A DNA stretch of 10,169 bases from Chthonomonadales bacterium. Its GTDB lineage: Bacteria > Armatimonadota > Chthonomonadetes > Chthonomonadales > Chthonomonadaceae. A program made the position numbers and the translations under genes. The stretch is from contig JBBQPO010000229.1 in assembly GCA_038217285.1 (NCBI GenBank), positions 1 to 10,169 of the forward strand, written 5' to 3'. The notes below the pieces were generated by a model. That model saw only the letters and a program-made list of their open reading frames with translations, had not been told where the DNA came from and made no database searches. How positions within the stretch are numbered: position 1 is the stretch's first letter; each line of letters starts with the position of its first letter. Below, one piece after another: positions 191 to 10,167 of the stretch.

Positions 191-1321
191 TTGACCGTAG
201 CGCGTCAGCCCGTGACATCCCTGCAACTGCATCGCTGGGGGGTGAGCACGGACAGCCTTCGTTTCGCCGTTGTCGACCTGCGCGACTTCCTGCATGTACA
301 TCGCGGCCCACGCTGGCATGAGGCACTGTCGGACAAGGCGGACGAGGAGGCGCGTTACGAGTTAGCGCACGAGGCGTTTTCGCGCTATGTGCAGGCCGAT
401 GCAGACCTTGCGTCGGGGCTGCTCGGGATGCATGCGACCATCGCTTCGCGCGCCCTGGTCGACCACGCGGGGCGTTGGGAGCAGGTCGATGCCGAAGATG
501 CTGAGGATCTGTATGACATTCGGCATGTGGCGGCGCATCTTCAGGCCATGGGGCGGGAAGCCGGTGAGATCGGCCAGGATCTCGGCCCGGACTACATTGC
601 GGCCTGCATTGCGCTCTCCACCCTGGCGTATGGTCGATCTCGGTATCGCGCCGTGCTCGATCTGATGGAAAACGTGATTGGCATCCTGCGGCCTCTGGTG
701 GAGGCGGGGCGCACCGAACTGGCAAACGACCTGGCTGCCGCGCTCATGAACAAAGGCAATGCTCAGCAGGGTCTGGGCGAGTTGCGCGCGGCGATCCAAA
801 GTTATGACGAAGCCATCGGCATCCTGCGGCCTCTGGTGGAGGCGGGGCGCACCGAACTGGCAAACGATCTGGCTGCCGCGCTCATGAACAAAGGCAATGT
901 TCTTGCTCAGGAGGACCGGTGGCAGGAGGCTATCGACTGCTATGACAAGGGAATCGCGCTCTGGCAAGCGCAGATTGAAGCGGGCCGGACACATTTTCTT
1001 CCCATGCTGCTCAAGGCACGTGGCATCCGTATCGACCTGTTCCGACGGTTGTCGTACTGGGACGCCGCAGCCGAGGAGGTAATGGAGGCTATCGCAGGCA
1101 TCGTGCCACACTTGGAATCGGATACCCTGTCTGAGGGCCTGGCACGGGAGTTTGGCGCCTTTCTGTACCGCCTGCAAGCGCTGGCTCCGGCGGAGCGAGC
1201 GGGGCTGTCTGCCGCATTAGGACCGGAACTGACGCAATGGCTTCGGGCCAGGTTTGGCCTGTGGAGCGATGAGAACGTTACGGAGGCAGAGGCGGCAGAC
1301 GGCAGCGAACAAGACGATTGA
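191..1321 (+). CDS. Tetratricopeptide repeat protein; probably the C-terminal WHD + TPR sensor part of a NACHT/STAND NTPase (the TTG at 191 is probably not the true start)
   Basis: TPR-like repeats LAAALMNKGNAQQGLGELRAAIQSYDEAIGI and LAAALMNKGNVLAQEDRWQEAIDCYDKGIAL. The N-terminal LLTVARQPVT...LRDFL...RYELAHEAF (353-379) matches the winged-helix signature of NACHT proteins. Acidic C-terminal tail. Confidence 0.8.
   Translation: MTVARQPVTSLQLHRWGVSTDSLRFAVVDLRDFLHVHRGPRWHEALSDKADEEARYELAHEAFSRYVQADADLASGLLGMHATIASRALVDHAGRWEQVDAEDAEDLYDIRHVAAHLQAMGREAGEIGQDLGPDYIAACIALSTLAYGRSRYRAVLDLMENVIGILRPLVEAGRTELANDLAAALMNKGNAQQGLGELRAAIQSYDEAIGILRPLVEAGRTELANDLAAALMNKGNVLAQEDRWQEAIDCYDKGIALWQAQIEAGRTHFLPMLLKARGIRIDLFRRLSYWDAAAEEVMEAIAGIVPHLESDTLSEGLAREFGAFLYRLQALAPAERAGLSAALGPELTQWLRARFGLWSDENVTEAEAADGSEQDD
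680..899 (+). repeat. Intragenic direct repeat, 2 x 82 bp (680-761 and 818-899), period 138 bp = 46 codons
   Basis: GGCATCCTGCGGCCTCTGGTGGAGGCGGGGCGCACCGAACTGGCAAACGA(C/T)CTGGCTGCCGCGCTCATGAACAAAGGCAATG occurs twice with one synonymous mismatch (730 C vs 868 T). It encodes GILRPLVEAGRTELANDLAAALMNKGN. Confidence 0.95.
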
Positions 1322-1344: not shown

Positions 1345-2583
1345 ATGAGCGGGCCCGCTCGCCGCGAGCCCTGCGCTACGCCGTGGAAGAGTATGTCACC
1401 AACCGAACCAAAAATAGAAAAGCATTTCACTATGATTCTCTATCCCTTTCAGCTCGACCTGAGCGGGCGCAATCGTAAGCGACGCCTGGACGCGCTGTGG
1501 GATCGGTGGCAGCCCTGGTGGAAACGACTGGAGACAGAGGAGGCAGTGGTGCGAGCCATCGACGATACCTACTTCTTTCTGCCGCACATTCGCACCCTCC
1601 TGTTCCCCGAACTACAGTCCCTGCACCCTCGAACCGGAGGAACGACCGATATAACGTCGGCGAAGATTGGCGACAATGTGGCGGAGGATGCGGTCATGCG
1701 CCTGACGCTGCAACCCCGGCATGACGATCCGCTGCAACAGCTCCGGCTTCTAAGCAAGCGACCGGACCAATCCGACTTTCACTATGACTTTCGGCTGGAA
1801 TGGGGGGATGTGGCTCTCTTTCCACAGGAGGTGGGCCTGCTCATTTTCAAGGTGAGCCTGATCGCCCCACTGGAAACGCGAGAGGTCGTCGAGTTTCTGC
1901 GTGAAGCGCGTCGAATCCATCCCCTGCGTCCCGATCTGAGCGTCGCTGCCTGGAAATCTGCCCCCGATCTGACCTTCACTGCCCGCGACCTCGTGGATTT
2001 CTACCTGCAGGGCCTTACGGACCTTAAGGGCGATCTGGACCACAGCTTTGCGAGTTTTCTCCGGAGATCTAACCGTGACGCTCCCGACGCCGAAAGGCCC
2101 GATCGCTATTCGCTCATGGACGCCGGCGAGGTGTATGGCGAAGGGTTCTTCCGGTATTCGTATGCCTGCCGGCCCCAGGTTGTGGAGGCTGCCGGCGCTC
2201 CTTCGCGGAACCGTTCCCATGATGCGGGTTCACTTGAGGACATACAGGCGTCGCGCCCCCCGCCCCTCGATCCCAGGCATTCGCATTCCGACACCCTCTT
2301 TGAGAACGATGAGACGCGCATCCTCTACCAGTTAGCTACCTGCACCGACCTTGACCATATCGACTCCCGGCCGCATCGACAGGGACTGCAGCATCTTCTG
2401 CGCCAGGGCCATATCGCCTGGTGGGCGAACTGGCAGGGGCTCGCGCTGCAGAGCAATGTGGTGTTTCTGGGATTGCATTCTTCAGTTCCGCCCTCGTCCA
2501 GGTCCAAAACGGACATCTGGTGTTTCCACACAGCGCATGGACCATGCTTGGGAAAGTCTCCCTCATCGTCTACCCGACATTGA
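1345..2583 (+). CDS. Hypothetical protein resembling the soluble N-terminal domain of divergent CorA-like (CRISPR/conflict-associated) membrane effectors; probably disrupted after about nt 2470
   Basis: Motifs ILYPF...W...YFFLPHIRTLLFP (1570-1608), DVALFPQEVGLLIFKV and WWANWQGLALQSNVVFLG recall the CorA-like family. The last ~35 aa are Ser/Pro-rich and look out of frame. Alternative start ATG 1393. Confidence 0.55.
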   Translation: MSGPARREPCATPWKSMSPTEPKIEKHFTMILYPFQLDLSGRNRKRRLDALWDRWQPWWKRLETEEAVVRAIDDTYFFLPHIRTLLFPELQSLHPRTGGTTDITSAKIGDNVAEDAVMRLTLQPRHDDPLQQLRLLSKRPDQSDFHYDFRLEWGDVALFPQEVGLLIFKVSLIAPLETREVVEFLREARRIHPLRPDLSVAAWKSAPDLTFTARDLVDFYLQGLTDLKGDLDHSFASFLRRSNRDAPDAERPDRYSLMDAGEVYGEGFFRYSYACRPQVVEAAGAPSRNRSHDAGSLEDIQASRPPPLDPRHSHSDTLFENDETRILYQLATCTDLDHIDSRPHRQGLQHLLRQGHIAWWANWQGLALQSNVVFLGLHSSVPPSSRSKTDIWCFHTAHGPCLGKSPSSSTRH

Positions 2584-2624
2584 CGCTCGTCTGGCTGCTC
2601 TGGCACCGGATGGACAGGGAATAG
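2463..2624 (+). pseudogene. Out-of-frame transmembrane C-terminus probably belonging to the 1345 gene
   Basis: Frame 3 reads GIAFFSSALVQVQNGHLVFPHSAWTMLGKVSLIVYPTLTLVWLLWHRMDRE*. This is the end of one hydrophobic helix, a loop, a full TM helix and a short charged tail, the layout of a CorA-type two-TM C-terminus. Its stop lies just before the RBS of the next gene. Confidence 0.5.
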
Positions 2625-2660
2625 CTTTTCCTTTTCATTCGTTTGTAAAGGTGAGATAGA

Positions 2661-3878
2661 ATGTCTTCCAAACTTCCACTCTCGTTGGATGCTAAGATCG
2701 CAAATTTATCCGATAGACTAGACCCCGTGTTACGGAGCGAACTCAAGATTTCACTTAGTACACTCCGGAACGCCGATAAACCTGATCCGTTTGGTACTGT
2801 GGTAAGGTTAGAGCGTCTGTCTTTGAAACTGCTCACAAAGATCCTGGAAGCTTCCGGGCATAAAATGCCCAGTGCAAATCTTTACAATTGTCTCACATAT
2901 GCGGGAAGAGGCGACCCTTCGAGCAAAACCACGGGGCTCAAACTCCTGCCTGATGAAATCGAAACGGCGCTGCATCCAATTCGCGTTTGGTCCGGAAAAA
3001 ATAAACATGATCTGGAAAAGGTTTCCCTTAACGTTTCGGACGCCGAAACGGCGCTTCATCTTTATCTCAGAGTACTGGAGTGGTATTACACCGAATATGA
3101 CAAGGGGCCTCGACTGCAGACGATCTACTCTCCTGTCTCCCTGGTTACTGGTCGAAGGGCCAGCGTACGCTCCGCAGTATATGCGTTAATCGTTATTGCC
3201 GGCGCCCTGCTTCTTACAAAAATACTTCCGCGCTTCAGTTCGACTGTATCCGCACTCTCACCATCCAGCAAAAATACCTCGATCTGGCAAGTATATCGTC
3301 CCGCTGACGGAAGTTATGTAATCGAATTCAAAGGCAAACCCCAAGAACTGAGCGCGCAGAACGCAGTGATGTCTCATTATGCAGGTGTTACGTATGCAGT
3401 CTACTCAACCAATATAACGGGCACAATAGCATCGACATCTGACGAGCAAGCGTACCTAACGAAACAGTTAACTCATATCGCACAGGCGTTTCCGAGTAAT
3501 GACGGCTCAATCGTCGAACTTCCCACATCAAACTCGTCCACACTGGATGGCTGCCCGGCAAAGCGATTCAGCATTCACCGCCCGCAAAACGAATGTACAG
3601 GGCTGCTTGTTCTCGCCCTTGGTCGCCTGTACGAGGTCACGGCAGTTGGCAAAGGACTGGCTTCTCACTCGATGGAAATCAGGCATTTCCTCGACTCGTT
3701 TCATCCGAAATTCTCGGCCGATCACACGCCATTGCCAGCCAGTTCGGTCTCCTCCGAACCTGGAATAGTGCCCACCCAATTGGACACGCTCACGAAAACA
3801 ACCGCTCCAGTGCAGCACATTAAGATTCAGGTCCGACCATTAGCCCGAAAAGTTATCGATAGACGTGAGATACCTTGA
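2661..3878 (+). CDS. Single-pass membrane protein: N-terminal DUF4145/HEPN-like domain, TM helix, extracytoplasmic PsbP/DcrB-like domain
   Basis: 405-aa ORF with RBS-like AAAGGTGAG upstream. Helical N-terminus with LHPIRVWSGKNKH (R108-x7-H116, nt 2982-3008) followed by DAETAL...VLEWY. TM AVYALIVIAGALLLTKIL (~3174-3227) preceded by Arg residues. Then WQVYRPADGSYVIEFKGKP...GRLYEV...FLDSF, and a Pro/Ser/Thr-rich tail. Confidence 0.7.
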   Translation: MSSKLPLSLDAKIANLSDRLDPVLRSELKISLSTLRNADKPDPFGTVVRLERLSLKLLTKILEASGHKMPSANLYNCLTYAGRGDPSSKTTGLKLLPDEIETALHPIRVWSGKNKHDLEKVSLNVSDAETALHLYLRVLEWYYTEYDKGPRLQTIYSPVSLVTGRRASVRSAVYALIVIAGALLLTKILPRFSSTVSALSPSSKNTSIWQVYRPADGSYVIEFKGKPQELSAQNAVMSHYAGVTYAVYSTNITGTIASTSDEQAYLTKQLTHIAQAFPSNDGSIVELPTSNSSTLDGCPAKRFSIHRPQNECTGLLVLALGRLYEVTAVGKGLASHSMEIRHFLDSFHPKFSADHTPLPASSVSSEPGIVPTQLDTLTKTTAPVQHIKIQVRPLARKVIDRREIP

Positions 3879-5619
3879 AGCCTAGCTCGATCTGGGTCTT
3901 GCTCTCTCTATCCACATGCCATTCATCGTCCCCGGTTACATGGCCACCATAGCTTCCCCTCACCTTATAATTTCCAGGTGAAACAGTGACGGTGCGGGAT
4001 TTTGCAGGTGCAAGATAGAATGAACGACTGGTCGAACCGATCACATTTACGGCAAGCCCCACGTTTCCGACGTTCGTAATAGTGATTTGTCCCCTGGGAA
4101 TGTCCTCATCTGTTAGCGTCCAGACCTGCTCGCCAGCTTCGAAACTTCGGATCCCCCCCGCTACAAACTCTCCCGCTCGAATTTGGTAGGGATATTTACC
4201 CGTCCTGAACGTCATTTTGCCACTGCCGTTCGGGCCTATGGATAACGCGTGGTCCCCTATCCGTGTCACCAGCGTGGAAGAGGTTTGGTTGTTTATGCTA
4301 AGCAGCGTGCGAGGAAACATATTCCCCTCGATGGTCCACTCTTCGCTGTATGTGAACTCGCGCTCCCCAGACATAACAGCCGGCCCCGCACTTACCTGGT
4401 AAGCATGGCTCCCTGGTGTTATGGGAAGCGCGATGCTCTGCATCGGAGGCACGGACCGCTGCACCGAGCCGATCAACACCTGTAGTGGAACCTCCACGCG
4501 GTTGATTACGACCACCGTGGGCAGGTCCTTTTGTACCTTGACCAACCAGGGGGCCAGGCGCAATGCTGCGTCCAGGTCAGGCCCAGGTGCAACCTCCCCG
4601 CGGCCGCGGGCCCGTGACAGTTCCATCCTGGAGAGCGCATCCCCAGGCCATGCGCGTACCGCTTCACTGGCTGCCGCCACGGCGCCGTCGAAGTCGCCGT
4701 CCGCACTGCGCGCGTGCGCGAGTTGTCGCTGGATTCGCCCGGAGCGCGGCCGTAACTTGCCTGCCGCTTCCGCCTGTTCTCGTGCTGTCTGCCTCGTCTG
4801 CGTCGCGTCCCCGCCCGATTCCGTAGTCATTGTGGCAAGCAATGACTCGGCATGTGAAATAGCGGCTAGTGCCTCGGCGTAATTGGGATCTATGTTCAAT
4901 GCCTGTCGAAAGAGTTCTACGGCGGCCAGTAAATCATCGGAAGTATGGCTTTTCATCCGCTGGGTGCCCTCGGCGTACTTCTTATGAGCTACGATAGATC
5001 CGGTCGCCCGGCTCTCGGCGGTCATCCGAGACCGTTCCGTGGCACTGGGGGACACGCTCATTGCCGCCACAACTCCCTTACAAACGGTATCCAACTGCGG
5101 GAAATAGTCATTGGGATAAGTGCCTGCACCGCGAATTGTTGCGCCCGACAGCACGTGTCCCGTCCTGACATCGAGCAGACGGGCTTCGATCCGGAACCTA
5201 TCTCCGACCCGCTGATAGCTGCCCATTACGACCACATCGGCACTCATGAGAGATCCGAGTTTGACTGCGTCAGACTCTTTTCTCGTATCCTGGATACTGC
5301 TCTGCTGTGCCACATCGGCAGCGACGGCCGGATCCACAACGGCTAACCCGTTTACACATTCCAGCGCGCCCGCAAGGCTATCGAGAATTCCTTCGCTCAG
5401 AGGAGCCGTTTCCGCGTCGCTAAGCGCGTTAAAAAACGGCAGAACCGCCACGCGTGGTGGCCTGGACCATGCGGTTCTCTGAAGCAAAACGTTGTTATGG
5501 CCCGTGCGCACCGGGTTCCTTCGTCTCTGCCCAGTTGCGAATGAGGCAGGCAAGACGAAGGCCAAAAACAATAACAGCGGAACACCCCATTTCAAGTTTG
5601 AACTTGGCATGCGTGTCAT
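3853..5619 (-). CDS. Exported protein: signal peptide, TolB-N/CsgG/FlgO-like domain, TPR repeats, three tandem beta-sandwich modules
   Basis: GGAGG 6 nt before ATG 5619 gives MTRMPSSNLKWGVPLLLFLAFVLPASFA (signal peptide-like). RVAVLPFFN...ADVVVMGSYQRVGDRFRIEARLLDVRTG is the TolB-N/CsgG-like pattern. AVELFRQALNIDPNYAEALAAI is a TPR. The frame is open upstream to ATG 5826, so the start is ambiguous. Confidence 0.8.
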   Translation of the reverse strand: MTRMPSSNLKWGVPLLLFLAFVLPASFATGQRRRNPVRTGHNNVLLQRTAWSRPPRVAVLPFFNALSDAETAPLSEGILDSLAGALECVNGLAVVDPAVAADVAQQSSIQDTRKESDAVKLGSLMSADVVVMGSYQRVGDRFRIEARLLDVRTGHVLSGATIRGAGTYPNDYFPQLDTVCKGVVAAMSVSPSATERSRMTAESRATGSIVAHKKYAEGTQRMKSHTSDDLLAAVELFRQALNIDPNYAEALAAISHAESLLATMTTESGGDATQTRQTAREQAEAAGKLRPRSGRIQRQLAHARSADGDFDGAVAAASEAVRAWPGDALSRMELSRARGRGEVAPGPDLDAALRLAPWLVKVQKDLPTVVVINRVEVPLQVLIGSVQRSVPPMQSIALPITPGSHAYQVSAGPAVMSGEREFTYSEEWTIEGNMFPRTLLSINNQTSSTLVTRIGDHALSIGPNGSGKMTFRTGKYPYQIRAGEFVAGGIRSFEAGEQVWTLTDEDIPRGQITITNVGNVGLAVNVIGSTSRSFYLAPAKSRTVTVSPGNYKVRGSYGGHVTGDDEWHVDRESKTQIELGFKVSHVYR

Positions 5620-5839
5620 CAGCGTCCTCCAGGCACTATACAGGGCCTCATCATCGAATTCCAGCCTGATCCCGGGCGCAACGGCGCCGATTTTGGCCGG
5701 TCTGAATGTACTCCCGCTCTCGAAAAACTGCCTTCCACAAACCCGCCTCATCCCGTAGCGAACCCAGATGAGCGAGCATACCTGGCCGTTTTCGCCACAT
5801 CGGGTACAGATTTCGAAATAAGCCATCGCAAATTTCCTC

Positions 5840-6619
5840 TCAGATAGCGCGCATGGCGATGTTCACTTCATGCGGCTGAGAGATCGTTAGCAGCATCCAG
5901 CCCTGTGCCTGATCACCCCACGGTAGTCCGAAAGAGATGGCGGGAGATGGCGCTAACAGAATGCCGTTGTGTTGAAGCGTAAGAGGGTGATGGGTATGGC
6001 CGGAGAGGATCGCACAAACGCGTCCCCGCTGTAACAGCGTCATTAGCCGGTTTCGTTGGACAGGATCTATATTCCACTGGTCAGGCGGTTCGTTCCGCGT
6101 GTGCACGAAAGGCGGATAGTGCGTGAGAAGGACCGTCGTTTCCGGCGTCGATGTTCGCAATTGATCGTCCAGAAACGCCCACTGTTGATTCTCGCGCGGC
6201 AAATTGCTTCCGAATAGCGAGGCAGTGACACCGATGACACGCAGCCCTTTGAACCGCTCTACGAAAAACGCGGGGCCGATACGGGCTTCATAGGCATTTA
6301 GGCTGGCCTCGGTGATCGGGTTCGAGCCACCGACCGATAGCTTGTCCCCCACATCATGGTTGCCCGCGACAAAACACACGGGCGCATTGAACCGCCGCAT
6401 CTGTTCGAGGGCTATCTCCACGTCTTCCGGAGCGGCACGGTCGGTCAGGTCGCCGGCGAAGAGAACCAACCCCACACTGGATCCATTGGCGGCGGCAATC
6501 ACTTCGTTCAGGCGTCGGCGATGGAGCGTTCCCGTCCCGTCCGCATCGCGCGACAGGTGCGTATCCGAAACGAGCGCTACGCGCACTATTGCGGCATATT
6601 GGAGGTTATGTGGCGCCAT
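5840..6619 (-). CDS. Calcineurin-like metallophosphoesterase (CpdA/Icc-like)
   Basis: All five family motifs are present in order: SDTH, GDLTD, GNHD, THYP, GHTH. 259 aa, no signal peptide. Confidence 0.93.
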   Translation of the reverse strand: MAPHNLQYAAIVRVALVSDTHLSRDADGTGTLHRRRLNEVIAAANGSSVGLVLFAGDLTDRAAPEDVEIALEQMRRFNAPVCFVAGNHDVGDKLSVGGSNPITEASLNAYEARIGPAFFVERFKGLRVIGVTASLFGSNLPRENQQWAFLDDQLRTSTPETTVLLTHYPPFVHTRNEPPDQWNIDPVQRNRLMTLLQRGRVCAILSGHTHHPLTLQHNGILLAPSPAISFGLPWGDQAQGWMLLTISQPHEVNIAMRAI

Positions 6620-6640
6620 AAGCGAGAGTGAAATCCAAAA

Positions 6641-7387
6641 TCAAGCGTGACTGTTGTTCACTCCATCCTCCTTTTCAACAGTCAGCCATAAAGCGCAGGC
6701 TTGAATCTTTTCGCGGACATACCGGCAGAACGCGTCGTGGCCGCGATTGCCGCTCTCGAAATAGGATGCCGTGTTATCGTAAAGAGGCAGCAGAGCGGAC
6801 CCACGCAGGAGAAGCATCGCGCCGAACGAGCGAGAGATACGGCCACAGCCATCGTAAAATGGATGCAGCGAGCCGCCGTTCAGTTCCCACTCCGCCCACG
6901 CCGCCAACGGCACGGGGTCGCCGGACTGTAGTTCCCCCCAGCGCAAATAGACCGTGTCACAGAACGATGCAACCGCCATTGGAAGCGCCTGCGCCGTAAC
7001 CTTCATCTGCGCGGCGGTAGTAGGCGCTTCGCCCTCCGGCGGTACGATCTCATGCGATCCGACCTCCCACGTCCGGTACCGGCCGGCGGGCAGAAGTCCC
7101 TCATTGGTAGTATCCGCAATTTGAAACAGCAGTGCCTGGACCTCTGCGCCGTTCCGTGGGGCGCGGTCCTGTCGCGTCTCAAAGAGAGAACGATGGACCA
7201 TCTGCTCATTTTCGGCGGACTTCGTGCGCAACGCATCTCCGATCAGGCGCAAAGGCAGTTTGTCGGCGCTGGTCTCGGTATTCGATATTCCTTTGCGGGT
7301 ACGGCTCAGGCGCAGGCTGATCTCGTGCAGGATGCGCGAGACGAAGCGCCAGTCTACACTGTGATAGTCAAACCGGTGGGAATCCAT
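6641..7387 (-). CDS. Fic/Doc family protein (putative AMP transferase)
   Basis: HPFYDGCGRISR at 6830-6865 matches HPFx(D/E)GNGRxxR with N replaced by C. The upstream AGRYRTWEV matches the G-x-Y/F-R pre-flap motif. RBS AAAGGA lies 8 nt before ATG 7387. Confidence 0.88.
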   Translation of the reverse strand: MDSHRFDYHSVDWRFVSRILHEISLRLSRTRKGISNTETSADKLPLRLIGDALRTKSAENEQMVHRSLFETRQDRAPRNGAEVQALLFQIADTTNEGLLPAGRYRTWEVGSHEIVPPEGEAPTTAAQMKVTAQALPMAVASFCDTVYLRWGELQSGDPVPLAAWAEWELNGGSLHPFYDGCGRISRSFGAMLLLRGSALLPLYDNTASYFESGNRGHDAFCRYVREKIQACALWLTVEKEDGVNNSHA

Positions 7388-7434
7388 GGTTACGATCCTT
7401 TCGCGACCTATCGCATCTGTCTCCTATCCGTGTG

Positions 7435-10167
7435 TCAGGCCTCTGTTGCCTCACGCAACGCGGCGCGCACCCATTCCCGCACATCCTCACGCAAGGGCGG
7501 ATCGCATGTCGCGGCCCCATCGGGCGAGCAGGTTTCCTCCAGATACCGTTCTTTAGCCTGGTTGATCGCTTTGCCGAGGCGCGGACCGTCTATCCCCAGT
7601 TCTTCCGACAGGCCGCTCGTTAAGGTGACGAATATCTTTTCCATCTTCTGACGGCAGACGAGTGTCGGATAGCACAGGAAATAGAAGGCAAGCAGCGCCA
7701 GATCGATCTCTCCAACATTGCCCAGCGGGATAGGCGCAGACGGGCCACGACAGGCCATCATGTCCGCATATCCATGCAGGATCATCAGCGGATACTCAGG
7801 TACATGATCGGAATGGTGTGGATCCAACAGAGGAAACAGATGGGATTTTTCCGCGGACGCCAGTGTGAGGATCACGTCCTGGCGCAGACACATCGTGAGG
7901 GACTCCAAAAACCGCTTGTTCTCATGGTACCGATTGACCTGCGTGTGGTGCTTGTGATGTTTGCGGATCATCTCCAGGGCGGTCAGGCAGGTGTCACTGC
8001 GGCTCGCACCGGATCCGGGAAAAAGGTCCGTCAGGCGCGAGGCAACCAACTGTGCGCCGTAGACTTCGTGCCCGAAGAACTGCGTCTTGTAGGCCTGCGT
8101 CTTTTCGTCCTGGGTCATCACGCGGGTCGCCGGCTTCCCGACATCGTGGAAGAGAGCGACCCACTTGATCAGCAGACGCCGCGAGTCGTTTAGATAGGCT
8201 GCCATCTTCTCTTTCAACTGGGGCAGCAGTGGCTGAATCCATGTGGTGTCAAGAGGTTGCACCTTGCCTCCAAAATCACTCCCCGGCGGCAGGGAGATCC
8301 CCTGTTCCTGGAGGCTCTGTTCGACTTTCTCATCAAGCCGATCCGGATGCAGCAGGCTCTCCATGGGATCTTCCAGGATCTCTTCCAGATAGGCCAGCAC
8401 CAGAAGCGTATGGTCGAAAACATCGAGGTGATGGCTCGCTCCCTGCAGGACGCCGCGTGTCGCATGGAGTGGTTCCAGCGCCTTCTGACCATCTTCGTTT
8501 TCCAGCCAGTAGAGCACGCGGCGCGGAATATATCGGCCCGACAACCACTGCTGCGTCAGCAGGCGCTCGTGCTTTACCGCACTGCGATTTCTCGCGTAAG
8601 GCTCCATCCCCATCATCCGACTGAGGGTGTCTTCCAGAACCCAGTAGAGTGCCATCAGCCAGCGGAAGTTTGCGATGGGAGCGGTGGGAGTTCCGGCGTA
8701 CTGGAGCGTATTCAACACCGTCAAATAGAGGACCGCAAGATACTCGCGCCGGTCCGGCGTATCCTCGCAGAAATAGGGCAAGGCGTGCCGACGAATGGAG
8801 GAGACGCAACGCATGACGTTGACAAGCGCGTCCGCATCCACGCCGAGGCGCGGGGCGATGTTGCGCACGGGCTCCATGCCTGCCTCCGTTGCGGTAAAGG
8901 TATCGAGCAGCAGGATCTCCATCTGCATCGCCTCTTCTTCGGTGTTCTCCTTCGAAGCGAGGTCCAGACACCAGAGGCGCACATAGACCTCCAGCTTGGT
9001 GAAATCGAACAGCGTGGGGCCGATTCCCGTCTCGCCAAAGTCTATGAGCCAGACATTGCTTTGATCCGCGAGGATGTTGCGGGGTTGCAGGTCGCCGTGA
9101 ATCAGGGAGTATCGAAGAGTCACCTGCTCCATCAGGCGATAGAGCAGGCCATCCCGGTTTTTGCCCAGTAGATGTGTGACCAGGTGTTCTCTCTGAACGA
9201 ACGCGATGTCCCACATTAGTTGTGCGGTAAATTGGCTGCGTTTCTCCGTATTGGATAGTTCGAATCTTCCAAACAGTGCGAGGGCGTCCTTCGGGCCGGC
9301 GCCCCGGAACATTTTCCACCAATTGCCGAGTTTCTCCGGGGCGCATCCGGTGTACCAGGTATGGGTGATCGCAAAGACCTTGTCCAGTACATGGTCTACC
9401 TGTTTGGAGTTCGCGGTATCTCGGAGGACGGATTGGAACGGCTGCGCCTGCAGCAGATCGCCTCCCAGAAACGTTCCGATAATCGTAGCGTAGGGAGGTT
9501 CGTCCGGTGAAGCGCCGGGCATACGGGCCGTCAGGAACTCTTCACTGCGGGACATGAAAGGATGGGTGCGATCCGCGAGGAAGACTTGATACCGCTCCCA
9601 CTCTTCGCGCGCCTTGCCTCTTGCGCCTGTCTTGATCAGCAGATTTGCGCCCCATGCCTGGCAGACCGCATCCAGCGGCGCGGTCCCCACAAACTCGGGC
9701 CGAGTCGTGTTGGGATTGCGCAATCGGGGGCGAAACACCAGCACATCGCTGCCCCCAAGCCCCGAAGTAAAGCGTCTTAGCCCGACGACCTCGGAGAAGC
9801 GCCTGTAACTGTGCCACAACAAAGCCGCCTTCGTCTGCTCCCAGCGACGCGCGGCTTCCGGGTTGCTTTTCAGCGCTTGAGCGGCGATGGGATCTCTCAA
9901 GAGAAGCGCATCGTTGATAGTACAGTGCGTCCAGCGAAGTAGGAGCAGGCAGTCCGGGATATCGGCTGCAGGATCGGCCTTGAGCGTGACCTCCCACTCT
10001 TCTTCTTGGGCCGGTCCCATTGCAACGGATGCAATAACCTCAAACTGACCGGCGCTCAGCGAATTGACATGCACGGTAAATTCGCGCGGTCCGCAGTGTG
10101 CCGCGAGAACAGGATCGGCGGTACTCACTGCATCCAACTTCAGCCGCAGGCATAGTCTGACCGACGT
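7435..10167 (-). CDS. APH/TCAD9-like phosphotransferase (kinase fold) fused to a C-terminal HD phosphohydrolase of the CCA/poly(A)-polymerase-associated type; 5' end probably outside the window
   Basis: Kinase motifs: SGLGGSDV (Gly loop 9748-9765), LLIKTG, EEWERY, IHGDLQPRNIL (9076-9099), WLIDFG (9034-9045), FDFTKLE. HD motifs: HHLDVFDHT (8407-8433), ALFHDVGKP (8131-8148), FFGHEVYGA, IRKHH, GYAD, and a GPRLG tail. The frame stays open above the TTG at 10137 (TSVRLCLRLK) to the window edge. Confidence 0.88.
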   Translation of the reverse strand, partial: TSVRLCLRLKLDAVSTADPVLAAHCGPREFTVHVNSLSAGQFEVIASVAMGPAQEEEWEVTLKADPAADIPDCLLLLRWTHCTINDALLLRDPIAAQALKSNPEAARRWEQTKAALLWHSYRRFSEVVGLRRFTSGLGGSDVLVFRPRLRNPNTTRPEFVGTAPLDAVCQAWGANLLIKTGARGKAREEWERYQVFLADRTHPFMSRSEEFLTARMPGASPDEPPYATIIGTFLGGDLLQAQPFQSVLRDTANSKQVDHVLDKVFAITHTWYTGCAPEKLGNWWKMFRGAGPKDALALFGRFELSNTEKRSQFTAQLMWDIAFVQREHLVTHLLGKNRDGLLYRLMEQVTLRYSLIHGDLQPRNILADQSNVWLIDFGETGIGPTLFDFTKLEVYVRLWCLDLASKENTEEEAMQMEILLLDTFTATEAGMEPVRNIAPRLGVDADALVNVMRCVSSIRRHALPYFCEDTPDRREYLAVLYLTVLNTLQYAGTPTAPIANFRWLMALYWVLEDTLSRMMGMEPYARNRSAVKHERLLTQQWLSGRYIPRRVLYWLENEDGQKALEPLHATRGVLQGASHHLDVFDHTLLVLAYLEEILEDPMESLLHPDRLDEKVEQSLQEQGISLPPGSDFGGKVQPLDTTWIQPLLPQLKEKMAAYLNDSRRLLIKWVALFHDVGKPATRVMTQDEKTQAYKTQFFGHEVYGAQLVASRLTDLFPGSGASRSDTCLTALEMIRKHHKHHTQVNRYHENKRFLESLTMCLRQDVILTLASAEKSHLFPLLDPHHSDHVPEYPLMILHGYADMMACRGPSAPIPLGNVGEIDLALLAFYFLCYPTLVCRQKMEKIFVTLTSGLSEELGIDGPRLGKAINQAKERYLEETCSPDGAATCDPPLREDVREWVRAALREATEA

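Follow-up and report, generated by a model that had tools for sequence, protein, structure and literature searches.

A candidate two-enzyme kinase-HD/Fic module on a Chthonomonadales contig

Described systems closest to the locus

The systems compared here are those nearest to two adjacent genes on a contig of a Chthonomonadales bacterium, one encoding a fusion of a kinase with an HD domain (kinase-HD, P0001) and the other a Fic-like protein (P0002). The contig was analysed over its whole length of 10,169 bases (the window) and belongs to a draft genome of 459 contigs. One part of P0001 resembles those class II tRNA nucleotidyltransferases that carry an HDIG domain, including the Aquifex aeolicus enzyme of structure 3wfo and the CCA-adding enzymes of Escherichia coli and Mycobacterium tuberculosis: amino acids 492-835 superpose on the A. 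aeolicus enzyme, and the HDIG site is intact, but the polymerase-beta head is replaced by a kinase resembling aminoglycoside phosphotransferases (APH) and by an N-terminal beta-sandwich. The HDIG domain of CCA enzymes is described in passages of one source as removing 2',3'-cyclic phosphate at tRNA 3' ends (PMC10673834). P0002 has, nearly throughout, the same fold as FICD/HYPE and other class II Fic AMPylases and deAMPylases, and keeps the His, Asp, Gly, Arg and Arg of their motif. It differs from FICD/HYPE by an invariant Cys in place of Asn, by the absence of tetratricopeptide repeats (TPR) or a membrane anchor, by its obligate kinase partners and by a Pfam Fic score below the cut-off.

Among conflict systems, the TCAD9 kinases of the vWA-MoxR-VMAP ternary systems are, in the available passages of two papers (PMC7159879; PMC10910872), likewise APH-like and predicted to be active. 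P0001 matches only the C-terminal third of TCAD9, however; no vWA, MoxR or VMAP genes were found in the window or among the scanned neighbours of kinase-HD and Fic-like genes, and neither an HD fusion nor a Fic partner is mentioned in these passages of Kaur et al. 2020 (PMC7159879). Pnkp-type RNA end healing and sealing, as set out in parts of PMC2190708 and PMC1920235, combines a like set of chemistries (a kinase, a phosphoesterase and an AMP-transferring enzyme), and such a set is clustered here, with an HD domain and a calcineurin-like enzyme as the phosphoesterases. Every fold differs, however: the kinase is APH-like and not of the P-loop type, the esterase is an HD domain, a Fic protein takes the place of the ligase nucleotidyltransferase, and activity on RNA is putative here. 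No P-loop polynucleotide kinase, ligase nucleotidyltransferase or Hen1 domain was detected in the window. The toxSAS toxins FaRel2 and CapRel, which according to the portions of that literature at hand pyrophosphorylate the tRNA 3'-CCA end and block aminoacylation, provide a precedent, by analogy only, for an immune or toxin-antitoxin effector that phosphorylates a terminal ribose. Their writer has a RelA/SpoT-type fold, unrelated in sequence or fold to the genes described here.

An earlier note, made from the sequence alone, did not recognise this gene combination as a named system, and our searches agreed. No named anti-phage system in PADLOC-DB 2.0 was matched as a whole. The best component matches were weak and at the level of domains, namely Cas3-HD (1.7e-7, HD region only) and PDC-S10 (1.3e-7, on P0003, a phosphoesterase encoded next to the pair), and P0002 matched SoFic at 3.8e-4 and PDC-S04 at 1.6e-3. 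The profile matches to SoFic/PDC-S04 and to CpdA-type class III phosphodiesterases were confined to the motif region and were far below family-level scores. A search of the window against PHROGs gave generic matches only. The portions of the literature on TCAD9, on ternary systems and on defence operons with Fic, kinase and HD components that were available hold no description of a kinase-HD/Fic pair, and the terms searched for the architecture do not occur in Kaur et al. 2021, although supplements to the two papers of Kaur et al., including the tables of the 2020 one, may contain architectures of this kind. The pair is best read as an undescribed two-enzyme conflict module, the target of which we infer.

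Linkage and domain make-up of the pair

The kinase-HD gene (7435..10167, minus strand; 910 codons in the window, with the frame open at the contig end; TCAD9, APH and HD matches) lies directly upstream of the gene for the Fic-fold protein of a 'DGCGR' subfamily (6641..7387, minus strand; 248 amino acids, 92 homologues). The two very probably form a functional pair, since they are adjacent across phyla, are fused in one protein (P0025) and have an analogous counterpart that was linked in all six of its loci. The kinase-HD family is rare, with 30 homologues among 5.8 billion proteins; in a sample of 401 genomes of the phylum none was found beyond the genome of the window (G000), which was also the only one of 68 genomes of the order to be matched by the Fic profile. 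Loci were collected with an alignment of the kinase region, giving 12 loci in 11 metagenome-assembled genomes (MAGs) and one metagenome locus, or 14 with the window. A scan with the whole-protein alignment picked out HD motifs and yielded just generic HD or CCA-type genes, and the metagenome scan was swamped by generic APH motifs, with a single true locus (L085).

A Fic-like gene was observed beside the kinase-HD gene of the P0001 family in 6 of the 14 loci, with Planctomycetota and Acidobacteriota among the source MAGs. It lies downstream on the same strand in the window and in L068, is divergent in L066 and L067, and is divergent with one gene between in L085. L069 and L147 are two pieces of one such locus, because the missing N-terminus of the kinase-HD is supplied by a 136-amino-acid open reading frame (ORF) at the L147 edge (E 1.6e-32). 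L065 was too short for its Fic neighbour to be judged. Seen from the Fic side, a TCAD9-type kinase adjoins the Fic-like gene in seven of eight close loci; the partner kinase in L148 is without the HD half and covers nearly the whole TCAD9 profile, and in the eighth locus (L149) a Fic-TPR fusion extends past the end of its 4.7-kb contig, so that a kinase neighbour is not assessable. The strongest single argument that kinase-HD and Fic work together is the fusion protein P0025, which has 1176 amino acids and carries kinase-HD at 18-937 and a Fic-like domain at 946-1164 with the motif HPFADGCGRISR.

A distant branch of the Fic-like proteins (26-32% identity) follows a different partner, a protein of 775-821 amino acids that joins a Ser/Thr-type kinase (Pkinase 1e-15 to 1e-24) to a dNTPase-like HD domain in which the HD dyad is replaced. 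The Fic-like gene was directly downstream of the full-length partner in 6 of 6 loci and beside none of the ten partial, kinase-only matches of the same scan. These cassettes (L153-L157 and L170, also numbered L168-L173) come from MAGs of Alphaproteobacteria, Gemmatimonas and Pirellulales. Starts and stops of the two genes frequently overlap, the GC content at third codon positions is below that of the flanks, and the cassettes are inserted between housekeeping genes or beside transposases.

P0001 matched TCAD9 (PF19974; 1.1e-19, 71.4 bits against a cut-off of 40, covering only profile positions 294-428 of 429), APH (6.6e-8) and HD (PF01966; 7e-9, 36.4 bits against a cut-off of 22). It also matched the HDIG model TIGR00277 (31.6 bits against a cut-off of 27.6) and has the metal ligands of HD/HDIG phosphohydrolases, with which it is classed. 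In an alignment of 21 family members, the kinase residues K179, E189, H357-G358-D359, N364 and D376 were invariant, as were the HD-site residues H674-D675, H700, H737 and D802. The AlphaFold2 (AF2) model, with a mean predicted local distance difference test (pLDDT) score of 82.3, consists of an N-terminal beta-sandwich (amino acids 1-85, AF2 strands E2-E85; 9913..10167, minus strand), a kinase and a helical C-terminal half. An adaptor domain common to the kinase-HD N-terminus and neighbouring STAND proteins was considered and dropped, its best match having only E 0.45. The kinase is of the APH/choline-kinase-like (TCAD9) type and spans amino acids 107-524 (8596..9849, minus strand), as judged from the invariant residues and from the Foldseek and VIA comparisons; its catalytic loop HGD..N lies at 9076-9099 and its DFG Asp at 9040-9042, both on the minus strand. 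The top Foldseek matches of this domain were maltokinase, choline kinase, glucosamine kinase and APH, and VIA gave Z 10-12.8 to maltokinase, choline, glucosamine, corramycin and aminoglycoside kinases. The modelled kinase thus resembles small-molecule (sugar or choline) kinases.

The best VIA match of the whole P0001 model lay elsewhere, in a region resembling the body and tail of class II tRNA nucleotidyltransferases (amino acids 492-835; 7663..8694, minus strand; from VIA and a profile match). This region superposed on residues 187-448 of 3wfo_A, the A. aeolicus A-adding enzyme, with Z 19.5 and a root-mean-square deviation of 2.7 A (212 residues aligned, 22% identity). Lower matches were to a plant CCA-adding enzyme (Z 9.3) and to chain 3aql_A (Z 8.3), presumably E. 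coli poly(A) polymerase. A sequence-profile match to the A-adding enzyme 3wfp (1.4e-10) ran over LLKWxxLxHDxGKP, and the HD dyad of the HDIG site (the invariant H674-D675) is encoded at 8143-8148 on the minus strand. Because structure and profile both match an A-adding enzyme, the C-terminal half exceeds a generic HD fold and resembles the portion of class II tRNA nucleotidyltransferases that binds RNA, which in those enzymes is named neck, body and tail. P0001 as a CCA-adding enzyme was ruled out: a polymerase-beta head was absent, with no NTP_transf or PolyA_pol match, and the kinase and N-terminal beta-sandwich stand where this head would be. The model TIGR02692 reached 31 bits against a cut-off of 438.8, confined to the HD region.

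P0002 scored below the Pfam Fic cut-off (PF02661; 0.0021, 19.3 bits against 24 bits), and two members of its subfamily lay just above it (the L085 homologue with 25.2 bits and the L149 fusion with 24.4 bits). The AF2 model (pLDDT 92.7) places the protein in the Fic/Fido superfamily by its fold: Foldseek gave a probability of 1.00 to the Fic fold, the best VIA match was FICD (Z 18.1, 198 residues, model 1-239 on FICD 195-433), the top 23 VIA rows were all Fic, Doc or AvrB proteins, and the ESM Atlas again returned 'Fic'. The canonical Fic motif is HxFx(D/E)GNGRxxR. The motif of P0002, HPFYDGCGRISR (6830-6865), keeps the His, Phe, Asp, Gly, Gly, Arg and Arg and departs from the canonical form in having Cys for Asn. 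This Cys (HPFYDGCGR) was invariant in 30 of 30 aligned members, and D[GA]CGR was present in 87 of 140 representatives checked. The earlier note had described the catalytic motifs of all three genes as intact-looking, which held for the kinase, HD and phosphoesterase motifs and failed for Fic at this one position. On the strength of its model, P0002 is a confident Fic fold of a distinct, class-II-like subfamily with the motif HPFxDGCGR.

A search of 1.84 billion representatives with a profile of this subfamily gave 1153 clusters at E<=0.001 and 401 at E<=1e-10. Six of 28 long representatives had a Zeta-toxin-type P-loop kinase fused to the Fic-like domain, and an intact NUDIX domain was fused to it in P0105, P0120 and P0122. 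The Fic subfamily is therefore associated, through the pairs and fusions found, with kinases of three unrelated folds (APH-like, Ser/Thr-type and Zeta-toxin) and with several kinds of phosphohydrolase. Zeta-type kinases phosphorylate nucleotide sugars and NUDIX enzymes cleave nucleoside diphosphates linked to another group (NDP-X), so we infer that the common thread is chemistry on the sugar hydroxyls and phosphates of nucleotide-containing molecules. Two single proteins are of note. P0225 (1449 amino acids), one of the six Zeta-toxin fusions, combines a Mu-type portal, a DGCGR Fic-like domain and a Zeta-toxin kinase, and looks like a phage-borne form of the Fic and kinase theme. P0298 (931 amino acids) has a Cas_csx3 domain fused to the Fic-like domain, a possible link to cyclic-oligoadenylate or RNA-related signalling.

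Gene layout, the phosphoesterase and the surrounding island

The earlier note had started from three co-oriented genes with gaps of 47 and 21 bp. We confirmed these as three minus-strand ORFs side by side (7435-10167, 6641-7387 and 5840-6619) with this spacing, and observed no terminator-like site in either the 47-bp or the 21-bp gap. An independent Logan contig piece covers 6473-7675 with zero differences and spans both junctions, so the adjacency is not a mis-join. In the public sequencing data, a single DNA run contains this stretch and no RNA run is listed for it. The 5' end of the kinase-HD gene is lost at the contig end, as judged from the alignment of family members: 18 of 20 homologues have extra N-terminal residues, numbering 14-55 (269 in one).

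The third gene (5840..6619, minus strand) encodes a calcineurin-like, CpdA-like metallophosphoesterase of 259 amino acids (P0003; Pfam Metallophos 7.7e-19). Calcineurin-like phosphoesterases have the motifs DxH, GD, GNHD and GHxH, and DTH, GD, GNHD and GHTHH can all be read in the P0003 translation. With 69.3 bits against a cut-off of 21.5 for PF00149, the protein clearly belongs to this family, and it is closest to the CpdA-type cyclic-nucleotide phosphodiesterases (PRK11148 2.6e-10).

The remaining neighbours were partly renamed. A NACHT-TPR gene had been proposed, but no NACHT domain was found in the window. The ORF at 3853..5826 (minus strand, 657 amino acids) has Pfam matches to FlgO/TolB_N-like and TPR domains, and that at 191..1321 (plus strand, P0007), with a Pfam TPR match, is a TPR protein or fragment. 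The former is co-oriented with the three genes and starts 13 bp past the phosphoesterase gene. By eye it has an internal signal-peptide-like stretch, MTRMPSSNLKWGVPLLLFLAFVLPASFA; if the signal peptide is real, the true start may be about 70 codons past the first ATG, some 220 bp after the phosphoesterase gene. P0007 has 34-37% identity to the NACHT-TPR protein of L073, in the TPR part only. In this ORF a TPR unit is present twice, as an 88-nt direct repeat (677-764 and 815-902, 138 nt apart and 97% identical), and the summed contig depth in the run was 22 in the bin 679-1017 against about 5 elsewhere. Given the raised depth, the repeat at 677-902 may be collapsed or common to other genes, which may explain the nearby assembly break. 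The neighbour once labelled CorA-like, a 412-amino-acid ORF at 1345-2583, retains a weak PADLOC match over its N-terminal half (E 7e-4) and has no Pfam match. No obvious membrane segment was seen in its translation, the overlapping 3' frame was uninformative, and the ORF may be truncated or frameshifted.

The neighbour described as HEPN-like (2661..3878, plus strand; P0005) has an N-terminal domain followed by a transmembrane segment. No direct domain match lies behind the label, which stands through homologues that match DUF4145. P0005 has 30-38% identity to the DUF4145-FHA proteins of L085 and L147 and to the N-terminus of an AAA NTPase of L075, and its N-terminal domain retains an R..H motif; it is possibly a recurrent neighbour associated with the module. 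The start of this ORF lies in a stretch of low GC content (2501-3500, 0.48-0.49 against about 0.58-0.62 elsewhere), which hints at separate acquisition.

In other genomes, a STAND NTPase-TPR gene directly abuts the kinase-HD gene in 4 of the 14 loci, those of L073, L075 and L076 being orthologous, and in L085 and L147 the kinase-HD and Fic genes are separated by one for a DUF4145(HEPN-like)-FHA protein. These genes, together with nearby transposases and an integrase and the absence of a real match to the window DNA anywhere along the contig in 30 related genomes, make a mobile conflict island a plausible setting. The suggestion of a defence island in the earlier note is thus upheld as plausible, with no PADLOC system behind it. 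Around the Pirellulales pair of L066 (2573-8202 and 14959-19998) we observed a weak protein-kinase-like gene, a CHAT protease, a DUF4384 protein, a DDE transposase and a giant Pkinase-nSTAND1-FGE-sulfatase gene, and this island is partly duplicated on a second contig (L067). NUDIX genes were also observed near Fic-less kinase-HD genes (L072 9098-9430 and L073 4552-5463), echoing the Fic-NUDIX fusions P0105, P0120 and P0122. Domain scans of the window and loci revealed no biosynthetic or transport genes near the module. No tRNA genes or Rfam families were found in the window, and none of its seven proteins had a paralogue in its own genome.

Candidate substrates, rival explanations and meaning of the pair

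On balance we lean towards reading kinase-HD and Fic as a two-gene module, either effector or regulatory, that belongs to a conflict (defence-type) island and acts on an RNA end or a nucleotide. The CCA-enzyme-like half of P0001 would dock the 3' end of a tRNA-like RNA or a nucleotide, the kinase would phosphorylate a ribose or sugar hydroxyl, and the HD site would take off a phosphate or a 2',3'-cyclic phosphate. The Fic enzyme would transfer a nucleoside monophosphate (NMP) or phospho-group to the same substrate or its phosphorylated form, so that the substrate would be blocked and unblocked, or a cut end healed. An RNA 3' end or nucleotide is favoured because of the likeness to sugar kinases, the Zeta and NUDIX partners, the CCA-like half and the HDIG and toxSAS precedents; for the HDIG removal of 2',3'-cyclic phosphate, Yakunin 2004 is reportedly the cited source. 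Taken singly, each substrate class remains tentative: an RNA end is possible, a protein is rather less probable and a free small molecule is less probable again. More speculatively, and in our view doubtfully, P0001 might be a derivative of a CCA enzyme with the nucleotide-adding head swapped for a sugar-hydroxyl kinase. Together with the Cys-type Fic protein, an NMP-transferase in this view, it would mark the terminal ribose of a tRNA or other RNA 3' end with phosphate and NMP and remove these marks again, as an undescribed immune effector or repair module deployed with STAND NTPase sensors, and the Fic subfamily would serve ribose- or sugar-directed kinases of three unrelated folds as a general partner.

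The earlier note had proposed that all three genes make one reversible circuit in which the kinase and Fic proteins write and the HD domain and an integral metallophosphoesterase erase. The tight, co-oriented spacing with no terminator-like site between the genes and the intact motifs of the CpdA-like phosphoesterase would suit such a circuit, as would, from part of the Pnkp literature, a superfamily shared with the end-healing phosphatase of Pnkp (PMC2190708). The trio probably also recurs in the nearest relative, to judge from the best homologues of P0001, P0002 and P0003 (55%, 83% and 67% identity), for which the longest contig is in each case 174,516 bases long and the four sources are identical; all three genes probably co-occur on one contig in this relative only. 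A single nearest relative is not independent evidence, however, and P0075/P0153, which share a longest contig of 4289 bases, may do so by chance. A phosphoesterase homologue was absent from the 13 other kinase-HD loci and from 11 further Fic-like loci, so that the expected linkage across genomes survived for kinase-HD and Fic and was lost for the phosphoesterase (0 of 24). Homologues of P0003 (37-46% identity) were present in 7 of 10 genomes of a sister family, in 0 of 18 of its own family and in 0 of 2 of a third, and those of the sister family are stand-alone genes among unrelated neighbours. We regard the three-gene circuit as improbable, and P0003 as a lineage-specific add-on or mere neighbour, not a conserved member of the module. 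The opposite view, that the genes are unrelated and adjacent by chance, could point to the 7 of 14 kinase-HD loci that lack a Fic gene and to the small samples; it is hardly credible given the P0025 fusion, the recurrence of the adjacency in different phyla and in both orientations, and the linkage in 6 of 6 loci of the distant branch.

Two further readings keep the pair and change its target. In a protein-directed toxin or regulator pair, the Fic protein would AMPylate a host protein or the kinase, the kinase would phosphorylate proteins and the HD domain would reverse this, with growth arrest on infection; the HD domain of GlnD, for one, removes NMP or phosphate from a protein. The best structures for the Fic protein are indeed AMPylases and deAMPylases (FICD, IbpA Fic2, VbhT and FicT), the two genes of L085 and L147 flank one for an FHA (phosphothreonine-binding) protein, the kinases of the distant branch are genuine Ser/Thr-type enzymes, and the gene overlaps in the pairs of that branch suggest a complex. 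Yet the window kinase is nearer to small-molecule kinases than to protein kinases, a protein target would leave the CCA-enzyme-like half unexplained, and likewise the fusions to NUDIX and Zeta-toxin domains, and one Fic family directly modifying three unrelated kinase folds is hard to picture; we think this reading unlikely. In a small-molecule pathway, the kinase would make X-phosphate from a sugar-, choline- or nucleoside-like compound, the Fic protein would make or use NDP-X and the HD, NUDIX or phosphoesterase enzymes would degrade the product; the compound might serve as a signal, be a metabolite in modified form or be an antibiotic that is inactivated. The structural neighbours of the kinase, which include amicoumacin kinase besides those named above, and the NUDIX and Zeta-toxin fusions and nearby NUDIX genes all fit such a pathway, and AnkX, which uses CDP-choline, and a CDP-bound Fic protein were among the fold matches of P0002. 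Passages of Kaur et al. 2020 likewise suggest low-molecular-weight substrates for the APH-like kinases of ternary systems (PMC7159879). Such a pathway leaves the Z 19.5 match to an RNA-binding region unexplained, has no biosynthetic or transport genes nearby, and suits the STAND NTPase and HEPN context less well than an immune effector does; we judge it improbable.

Several observations count against the favoured module acting on an RNA end or nucleotide. We know of no APH-fold kinase that acts on RNA, and the modelled fold shared with CCA enzymes does not show RNA binding by P0001. Protein phosphorylation is suggested instead by the FHA neighbour and by the Ser/Thr kinases with which the distant branch is paired, and NMP transfer by the Fic protein is putative because the canonical Asn is absent. 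The flanks covered around L070-L076 (7 of the 14 kinase-HD loci) contained no Fic-like gene even at a hidden Markov model E<=1, and a Fic-profile scan of the genomes of these MAGs found none elsewhere, so kinase-HD can work without Fic. The sample of loci is small and mostly consists of MAG contigs with short flanks, and any role of the pair in toxicity or phage response is putative.

The proposed three-gene system is thereby corrected to a two-gene core with a local neighbour. Should the pairing prove functional, the Fic proteins with HPFxDGCGR would be set apart as a subfamily of their own, with kinases of three different folds and HD or NUDIX hydrolases as partners, a pattern that points to a two-step chemistry undescribed for Fic enzymes. 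To our knowledge, no search having been aimed at this point, P0001 would be the first case of the RNA-binding chassis of a CCA-adding enzyme carrying a kinase, and this gives a substrate hypothesis for the protein that is concrete and can be tested. The pair would also add candidate effectors to STAND/NLR-type bacterial immunity.

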